A stretch of 63,310 bases of DNA, filler included, from Porpidia crustulata (lineage: Eukaryota), in NCBI GenBank assembly GCA_964255105.1. It is 12 parts of 12 records of this genome, joined end to end, with 100 filler letters (N's around TTAATTAATTAA, not from the genome) between each part and the next. Parts side by side here need not be neighbours in the genome. Positions count along the whole stretch, not along the records: positions 47,595 to 52,772 come from CAXUWE010001891.1; 11 more parts are not named here. The stretch is one strand, 5' to 3'. The notes under the pieces are model-generated. The model was given only the letters and a program-made list of their open reading frames with translations. It was not told where the DNA came from and did no database searches. Of the stretch, positions 49,763 through 50,797 are shown one piece after another; position 1 is the stretch's first letter, and every line of letters starts with the position of its first letter. The position numbers and the translations under genes were made by a program.

Positions 49763-50797
49763 ATGAGCAGCCCAAAGAGAAGGATCGAGACGGATGTAAG
49801 TGGGCTGGAGCCATACACCCATGCGGAAGGCCAGATATAAGACAGTGCTGATGGATTTCTTCATCACGGGCATAGGTCATGAAGTATGCAGTATACCCTT
49901 GGCGGAGGCTTAAGTACCATGGCTAACTGCCCACAGGATGTATGTCTCTTCATCGATTGAGCTACACAGAGAGAGACACAGGCGTTAACTCTGGATCACG
50001 CAGGTTGATGAGCGATTATGAAGTGACTTTGGTCAACGATAACAGTGAGTTCTCGTAGATGGCACCCTCATTTTGCCAAGGTTATTCTAACAGATTCAAG
50101 TGTATGCTTCATACCTCAATGTTGACGTATTACGTTCGAAGGCTTATCGTGTTGCTCGATTCCAAGGCAAGAATTCTACGTTCGGTTCAAGGGGCCTGAA
50201 GAAAGTATGAAATTTAGTATGTTCTTTCATTACCACCTGCTCACATGTTTTCTCTGCAGCTCCCTTCACTGGTGGTCTATGGAAAGTCCATGTAGAACTT
50301 CCAGATCAATATCCGTATAAGAGCCCAAGCATTGGCTTCGTCAATCGCATTTTTCACCCAAATATCGATGAGCTGTACGCTTACTCCTACGTAGTCGTGG
50401 TGGAATGAGGCTGACTATTATAGCTCTGGGTCTGTATGCCTTGATGTAATCAACCAGACATGGTCGCCGATGTTTGATATGATCAACATCTTTGAGGTCT
50501 TTCTACCTCAGCTTCTGCGGTACCCAAATCCGACAGACCCGTTGAATGGAGAAGCAGCGGCGTTGCTGATGCGAGACCCGAAAACTTACGAATCCAAGGT
50601 CAAAGGTCAGCCCTCTCAGCCGCTGATTTAGGGGTGGGAAGGTAAGCTGATGCCATGAAATAGAATATGTCACGAAATATGCAACCAAAGACGCTGCGGA
50701 CGAAGCAGGTGATGATAGCGAGTCTGAGGAAGAGATGAGCTCGGTCGGCAGCTTCGGGTCTGGAGATGATGAGCCGGTGGGACAAATGGAAGTCTGA
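49763..50797 (+). CDS. UBC8: Ubiquitin-conjugating enzyme E2 Ubc8 (UBE2H), with microexons
   Basis: Spliced product [95 protein letters not shown]...PLNGEAA with an acidic tail; missed by the ORF track. Confidence 0.95.

Follow-up and report, generated by a model that had tools for sequence, protein, structure and literature searches.

A probable single-nucleotide exon within a split methionine codon of UBC8 in Porpidia crustulata and in related loci

In Arabidopsis, a single-nucleotide exon of the gene APC11 was proven with mutated minigenes (PMC4674806). According to the passages of that paper considered here, the exon is an A, located 333 nt into an interval formerly annotated as a single 422-nt intron, and the rice paralogues of APC11 lack the introns. 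The authors favour intron definition, with the two introns removed one after the other (PMC4674806). In Fusarium, the P450 gene CYP621A contains a one-nucleotide exon G (AGGGT), which is reported for 20 species of the one genus with SRA reads (PMC12940212). The gene is rarely expressed, and in the parts of the publication drawn on here the exon is called the first fungal case. The argument combines an intron-free relative with reads, and the authors find nearly all database models to be wrong at the site (PMC12940212). A long-read annotation of Coprinopsis cinerea lists 13 exons of 1 nt in 13 genes, in addition to 57 two-nucleotide and 27 three-nucleotide exons (PMC12230235).

Two further systems involve splice sites in close contact. 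The ratchet points of recursive splicing have the sequence AG-GT and amount to zero-length exons, and stepwise removal is expected for them (summarised in PMC4674806). Stwintrons, as far as the accounts considered here describe them, are found in filamentous ascomycetes and consist of two U2 introns in immediate contact, which are removed in consecutive splicing reactions. One of the two, the internal intron, breaks into a splice signal of the other, external intron, with no intervening exon.

The window analysed here is a stretch of 63,310 nt, filler included, from the lichen-type fungus Porpidia crustulata (assembly GCA_964255105.1). It contains the gene UBC8, in which the T at position 50101 very probably represents a genuine and constitutively used single-nucleotide exon. 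The T shares several features with the exon of APC11, as a single base lies between AG and GT, is essential for the frame and is missed by annotation. The APC11 exon is constitutive, and the T is likewise taken as such. Unlike APC11, the T is located inside a methionine codon, both introns comprise about 60 nt, and the layout occurs in many lineages; moreover, APC11 was shown by minigenes, whereas the UBC8 exon of this fungus is predicted from DNA. The similarity to CYP621A comprises the occurrence in Pezizomycotina, an AG-N-GT within a conserved motif, and an interval about twice the size of a normal intron. In both cases, database models are mostly wrong at the site and an intron-free relative is informative. 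The T of UBC8 differs in belonging to a conserved E2 gene and, to judge by protein models, in extending over five classes rather than one genus. With Coprinopsis cinerea, the common feature is fungal splicing of 1-nt exons, but C. cinerea is a basidiomycete, and its 13 genes are not named in the passages of the paper considered here (PMC12230235). The preliminary description of the locus had called single-nucleotide exons very rare. Rare they are, but they have already been published, including the fungal cases of CYP621A and Coprinopsis.

As at ratchet points, a 3' site adjoins a 5' site in UBC8 and stepwise removal is expected. In contrast to ratchet points, the base is retained, and the halves are ordinary short introns instead of pieces of a very long one. 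A recursive splice site in the strict sense (AG-GT, with no base retained) was rejected on account of the retained base. The difference from stwintrons is that both introns are complete and a coding base lies between them. A stwintron was rejected as well, since the primary sequence contains all six signals in uninterrupted form, and excision of the whole interval loses the T and shifts the frame. A full-text search of the main text of articles outside subscription journals found no report of a single-nucleotide exon in UBC8. What is new here, to judge from the sequences, is the gene itself, the position of the T within an ATG, the companion exons of 8 and 3 nt and, above all, the breadth of conservation.

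By its predicted product, the gene is a UBC8/UBE2H-type E2 ubiquitin-conjugating enzyme. In E2 enzymes, the active-site cysteine comes after an HPN motif, and both the motif and the active-site stretch are found in the translated model. Exons 7 and 8 score 46.8 and 54.3 bits, respectively, against the UQ_con profile (PF00179; cut-off 27), and the full-length homologue P0015 scores 133.7 bits. The best named matches are designated "Ubiquitin-conjugating enzyme E2 8" or "E2 H" and show 93-98% identity over exon 8, with the 98% reached by the E2 8/E2 H proteins of lichen-forming Lecanoromycetes. As stated in the preliminary description, A, T and G rebuild an ATG and give NDN-M-QEF; the joined CDS of 555 nt is open and encodes 184 amino acids. 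The resulting protein aligns end to end and without gaps with P0015 (89% identity) and P0061 (86%), over 184 amino acids in each case. The 243-aa database protein P0008 shares 100% identity with the window across exon 8 and lacks the N-terminal exons. Its model reads through introns 7 and 8, which shows poor modelling of the gene family. P0008 is not the gene of the window itself, because the tails differ.

The features of the gene are compiled in Table 1. As the exons of 8 and 3 nt lie just 5' of exon 4, five introns fall inside the first 29 codons, and the first 87 coding bases include the 8-nt, the 3-nt and the one-base exon. A search for sequencing runs containing this sequence yielded a single DNA run and none of RNA. 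Two contigs of this DNA run are identical to the window at UBC8, with 0 differences and no joints, although this run (0.99 of words, introns included) may be the window's own source.

Table 1. Features of UBC8 in the window (positions along the whole stretch; lengths in nt; hyphens in the remarks mark codon or splice boundaries).
Feature	Start	End	Strand	Length	Remarks
UBC8 gene	49763	50797	+		nine exons, eight GT-AG introns of 49-80 nt
Exon 1	49763	49795	+	33	ATG start
Intron 1	49796	49875	+	80	GTAAGT..TAG
Exon 2	49876	49883	+	8	micro-exon GTCATGAA, V M K-
Intron 2	49884	49936	+	53	GTATGC..CAG, branch-like GCTAAC
Exon 3	49937	49939	+	3	micro-exon GAT: final base of Lys codon and AT of Met
Intron 3	49940	50003	+	64	GTATGT..CAG
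Exon 4	50004	50044	+	41	3' end GAT AAC A (A of Met codon)
Intron 4	50045	50100	+	56	GTGAGT..TTCTAAC..AAG
Exon 5 (putative)	50101	50101	+	1	single T, middle base of Met codon
Intron 5	50102	50166	+	65	GTATGC..AAG
Competing AG	50140	50141	+		alternative acceptor; SLSCCSIPR instead of Met
Exon 6	50167	50204	+	38	G of Met, then CAA GAA TTC
Intron 6	50205	50259	+	55	GTATGA..CAG
Exon 7	50260	50374	+	115	UQ_con profile positions 41-77
Intron 7	50375	50423	+	49	GTACGC..TAG
Exon 8	50424	50605	+	182	SGSVCLDV stretch; UQ_con profile positions 78-137
Intron 8	50606	50663	+	58	GTCAGC..TAG
Exon 9, coding part	50664	50797	+	134	acidic tail, stop TGA at 50795-50797

On re-reading of the sequence, all exon and intron coordinates that had been given around 50044-50167 are correct. 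The sequence AAG-T-GTATGC at 50098-50107 comprises one base, preceded by the AG of a 3' site and followed by the GT of a 5' site. Introns 4 and 5 are each complete on their own, with a 5' site, a branch motif, a 3' site and a viable length, and both are typical in size for the gene, the other six introns ranging from 49 to 80 nt. The branch motif of intron 4, TTCTAAC, occupies 50085-50091, which puts the branch A (50090) 10 nt upstream of the 3' G. A further AG at 50092-50093 lies merely 2-3 nt past this A. Intron 5 contains two branch candidates, namely CTTAT at 50143-50147 (A at 50146, 20 nt upstream of the 3' G) and TTGAC at 50122-50126 (A at 50125, 41 nt from the acceptor), the latter being the choice of the scorer. 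CTTAT belongs to a short string common to the related loci L001, L017 and L019, in which it is the motif nearest to the acceptor, and it is the likely branch of intron 5. The competing AG is located upstream of CTTAT and 25 nt upstream of the AAG acceptor. If CTTAT is the branch, this AG would therefore be unable to serve as an acceptor. A minor isoform using TTGAC and the AG ending at 50141 is possible, because CTTAT is weak, the acceptor of intron 5 is AAG, and the competing AG is in frame.

Metagenome contigs were scanned with the exon-8 peptide, yielding 80 loci and, together with the window, 81 sequences. Each was classified by the sequence that separates the Asn codon from the codons for (Q/S/R)-E-F. 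The layout A-GT...AG-T-GT...AG-G was found in 53 of the 81 sequences, the first intron alone followed by TG in one (L012), and an uninterrupted ATG in 23, with the site not covered in four. Any other layout was absent, so that the 77 sequences covering the site divide into 53, 1, 23 and 0. The preliminary description had proposed a comparison of orthologues for a conserved AG-T-GT, and this arrangement is kept in 52 of the 80 related loci in addition to the window. The 53 two-intron sequences correspond to 42 distinct ones, and no other layout was found among the 43 distinct interrupted regions. Searching the metagenome loci by tblastn with named C-terminal halves gave scores that were too close, and no taxonomic labels are used for these loci.

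Among the 42 distinct sequences, the median length is 60 nt for the upstream intron (range 46-87 nt) and 58.5 nt for the downstream one (range 50-86 nt). An all-against-all blastn of the introns separates these sequences into 32 groups without a match to one another. When the window is aligned with seven of the loci, only the exons and AG-T-GT are conserved. Intron position +5 is occupied by a G in 42/42 upstream and 40/42 downstream introns, and the top branch-like motif is located 8-27 nt before its own AG in 42/42 and 41/42, respectively. The lone exception in branch distance is the downstream intron of the window itself (TTGAC, 41 nt). Both the +5 G and the position of the branch motif were outside the search pattern and, not being imposed by it, behave like real splice signals. 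The two downstream introns lacking the +5 G are those of L047 (GTAACA) and L056 (GTATCG). AGTGT is present in all 42 distinct two-intron regions, with each half forming an intron of 46-87 nt. As a control, AGTGT was counted in other introns of the same genes, where 6 of 108 contain it, and in shuffled regions, where on average 3.9 of 42 and at most 11 contain it (1000 shuffles). In L030, L035, L038, L039 and L056, the split methionine is followed by serine (M-SEF) instead of glutamine, with the same AG-T-GT. Thirty-six distinct related sequences share the pattern of an 8-nt and a 3-nt exon. The two are fused into a single exon of 11 nt in L034, L048, L051, L063 and L067.

The remaining layouts bear on the independence of the two introns. 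L012, which retains the first intron only, also lacks introns 1 and 2 of UBC8. The loci closest to it by protein, L025 and L041, have both introns around the T, and L012 thus has the appearance of having precisely lost the downstream intron. In seven genomic loci (L036, L049, L057, L061, L062, L066 and L068), other introns are kept and both introns flanking the T are absent. The downstream intron alone was seen in none of the 81 sequences classified. Introns 4 and 5 are therefore separable units, as L012 keeps the first alone and seven loci are without both.

Thirteen loci are short contigs with a complete, uninterrupted CDS, all of which read NDN-M-QEF, and two further uninterrupted, cDNA-like loci, L078 and L079, read M-REF. 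One of the thirteen, L007, is colinear with the genomic locus L022 (and with L020) all the way from the 5' UTR through the 3' UTR. The eight introns of L022 are each precisely absent from L007, which retains both micro-exons (8 and 3 nt) as well as the T, and has ATG at the site. The two sequences are identical over exon 4 (41/41), and they differ by 1 mismatch in 43 in the exon-6 alignment and by 12 mismatches in 954 in the 3' part. The T of the ATG in L007 has no source at either exon edge of L022, and within the L022 interval canonical sites flank only one T, that of AG-T-GT. An mRNA reading AAC ATG CAA, suggested earlier as a check on the exon, is thus matched in a close relative by the cDNA-like L007 compared with L022. 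L007 and the other intron-free contigs are taken to derive from RNA; poly(A) tails were looked for in 16 intron-free contigs and none was found. As L007 is about 1-3% different from L022, it may represent a sister strain or species. Near-identical pairs of cDNA and genome are limited to L007 with L022 and L020. Other pairs are more distant, with L044/L047 at about 91-100% per exon and the rest at about 70-82%. No cDNA-like contig retaining just one of introns 4 and 5 was found.

Public protein models reflect the difficulty of the site. Among the best 120 homologues of the first search, 66 lack the exon-4 region, 28 read M-QEF and 26 are garbled right after NDN; thus 28 of the 54 with the exon-4 motif read M-QEF at the split codon. 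A second protein search, seeded with a Neurospora model, added 111 further proteins, although this query is itself garbled and may give longer models a slight advantage in the ranking. That gene predictors miss the one-base exon, as had been claimed, is borne out by the motif test, in which just 2 of 94 named genome models have methionine at the site. These are P0206 and P0214; P0220 also reads NMQEF but lacks the exon-4 motif that the test demands. By comparison, methionine is present in 17 of 17 unnamed proteins from short contigs. In 24 models, the reading is NDN-M-x-y, in which the first intron is removed and the sequence is then read through. The residue x fits a codon starting with T in 23 of 24 and y one starting with G in 22 of 24, as predicted by T-GTNNG. 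Such models are found in Fusarium kuroshium (Sordariomycetes), Alternaria panax (Dothideomycetes), Pseudogymnoascus verrucosus (Leotiomycetes), Penicillium flavigenum (Eurotiomycetes) and Lasallia pustulata (Lecanoromycetes). From the protein models of these named species, we infer the T-GTNNG layout in five ascomycete classes. In P0203, P0204, P0167 and P0219, one or two residues (R, or SM) replace the methionine, which suggests that the pipelines used non-canonical splice sites to keep the frame.

Under the proposed mechanism, two independent, normal-sized U2-type GT-AG introns split one methionine codon in phase 1 and phase 2. Removal of both joins A, T and G and restores the conserved NDN-M-QEF. 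Short fungal introns are presumably recognised across the intron (intron definition), and exon length would therefore not be limiting. Since the 3' site and the 5' site are 1 nt apart, introns 4 and 5 are probably removed one after the other, and their splicing would resemble recursive splicing apart from the retention of one base. Before removal of intron 4, the donor context of intron 5 is AGT-GT, and after it CAT-GT. Donors with a pyrimidine at +3 are more frequent among downstream introns (17/42) than among upstream ones (6/42; Fisher p = 0.013, with lineages that are not independent). The change in donor context and the less canonical downstream donors would fit upstream-first removal, without proving it.

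Alternative readings have to keep the frame open. As noted in the preliminary description, skipping the T causes a frameshift: removal of 50045-50166 as a whole leads to a stop at codon 53, and retention of intron 4, intron 5 or both likewise gives early stops. An acceptor at 50141 had been put forward as the only other in-frame option. It does yield SLSCCSIPR in place of methionine, but it is not the sole one, as an exhaustive scan turned up eight single introns (GT-AG, 40 nt or longer) with which the frame stays open. All eight change residues that are invariant in the transcript-like sequences of relatives, and only the model keeping the T yields a gapless 184-aa Ubc8 protein. It is highly improbable that the main splice removes a single intron of 97 nt, from donor 50045 to the AG at 50140-50141, even though this intron would be canonical, in frame and free of stops, and the branch-like TTGAC has its A 16 nt upstream of the AG. 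The insert is indeed non-conserved, as previously maintained: the equivalent path in L001 runs into a stop, and the in-frame paths in L017 and L019 all contain stops. Stop-free in-frame alternatives with a single intron exist in 18 of the 42 related sequences, where they vary in length (2-33 amino acids) and in sequence, and there is none in the other 24. A plain methionine in 13/13 complete cDNA-like CDSs and in 17/17 short-contig proteins also speaks against the 97-nt intron, which would moreover leave the signals TTCTAAC..AAG-T-GTATGC and their conservation unexplained and would place CTTAT, common to the nearest relatives, downstream of its acceptor. Other single introns can hardly be credited. 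They would run from 50045 to the acceptor 50171, giving NDN-K-FYV with loss of M-Q-E, or from donors 50049 or 50055 to the acceptor 50166. Their frames are formally open, and the K-FYV solution is adopted in eight named genome models, but these are predictions and not transcripts. Furthermore, donors 50049 and 50055 lack a G at +5, and all of these solutions remove or change residues that show no variation among the cDNA-like sequences.

A decaying or non-functional copy, or an assembly error at the T, with no correct mRNA in either case, is similarly implausible. Nine exons are intact, eight introns are canonical, and the protein is 89-90% identical to homologues over the full length. In addition, the contigs of the DNA run agree at every base, and 52 further loci show this layout. 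The 122-nt interval might also constitute a nested, stwintron-like unit, with splicing of one intron possible only once the other has been removed; the resulting mRNA would be the same. Simultaneous occupancy of splice sites 1 nt apart is unlikely, and the authors of the APC11 study argue likewise in the passages considered here (PMC4674806). The altered context of the 5' site after removal of intron 4 and the excess of pyrimidines at +3 of the downstream 5' sites point in the same direction. Nevertheless, a nested unit is improbable, as neither intron interrupts the splice signals of the other, which is at odds with the definition of a stwintron, and as L012 with intron 4 alone and the seven genomic loci without both introns indicate separable units. 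Two independent introns separated by a coding T remain the preferred reading.

On balance, the comparison slightly favours the view that AG-T-GT and its 8-nt and 3-nt neighbours are ancestral to the leotiomyceta crown group, here comprising Sordario-, Leotio-, Dothideo-, Eurotio- and Lecanoromycetes, and that splicing is obligatorily stepwise. If true, the layout would have been kept while the flanking introns diverged beyond recognition. It would then surpass all known single-nucleotide exons by a wide margin in both the breadth and the age of its conservation, and most public Pezizomycotina models of UBC8 would be wrong at the split methionine codon. The UBC8 models in most public genome sequences of filamentous ascomycetes appear to be faulty, because gene finders lack one rule, namely to allow AG-N-GT. 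The same is reported by the authors of the CYP621A study for their gene, in the passages considered here (PMC12940212). UBC8 offers a natural substrate, spread over multiple lineages, for the handling by the spliceosome of 3' and 5' sites 1 nt apart, and genetically tractable fungi appear to have the same layout. Informative evolutionary states are available at the locus, with both introns, the first only, or neither. UBC8 thus suggests that a 1-nt exon may be stable in the long term, rather than a short-lived accident.
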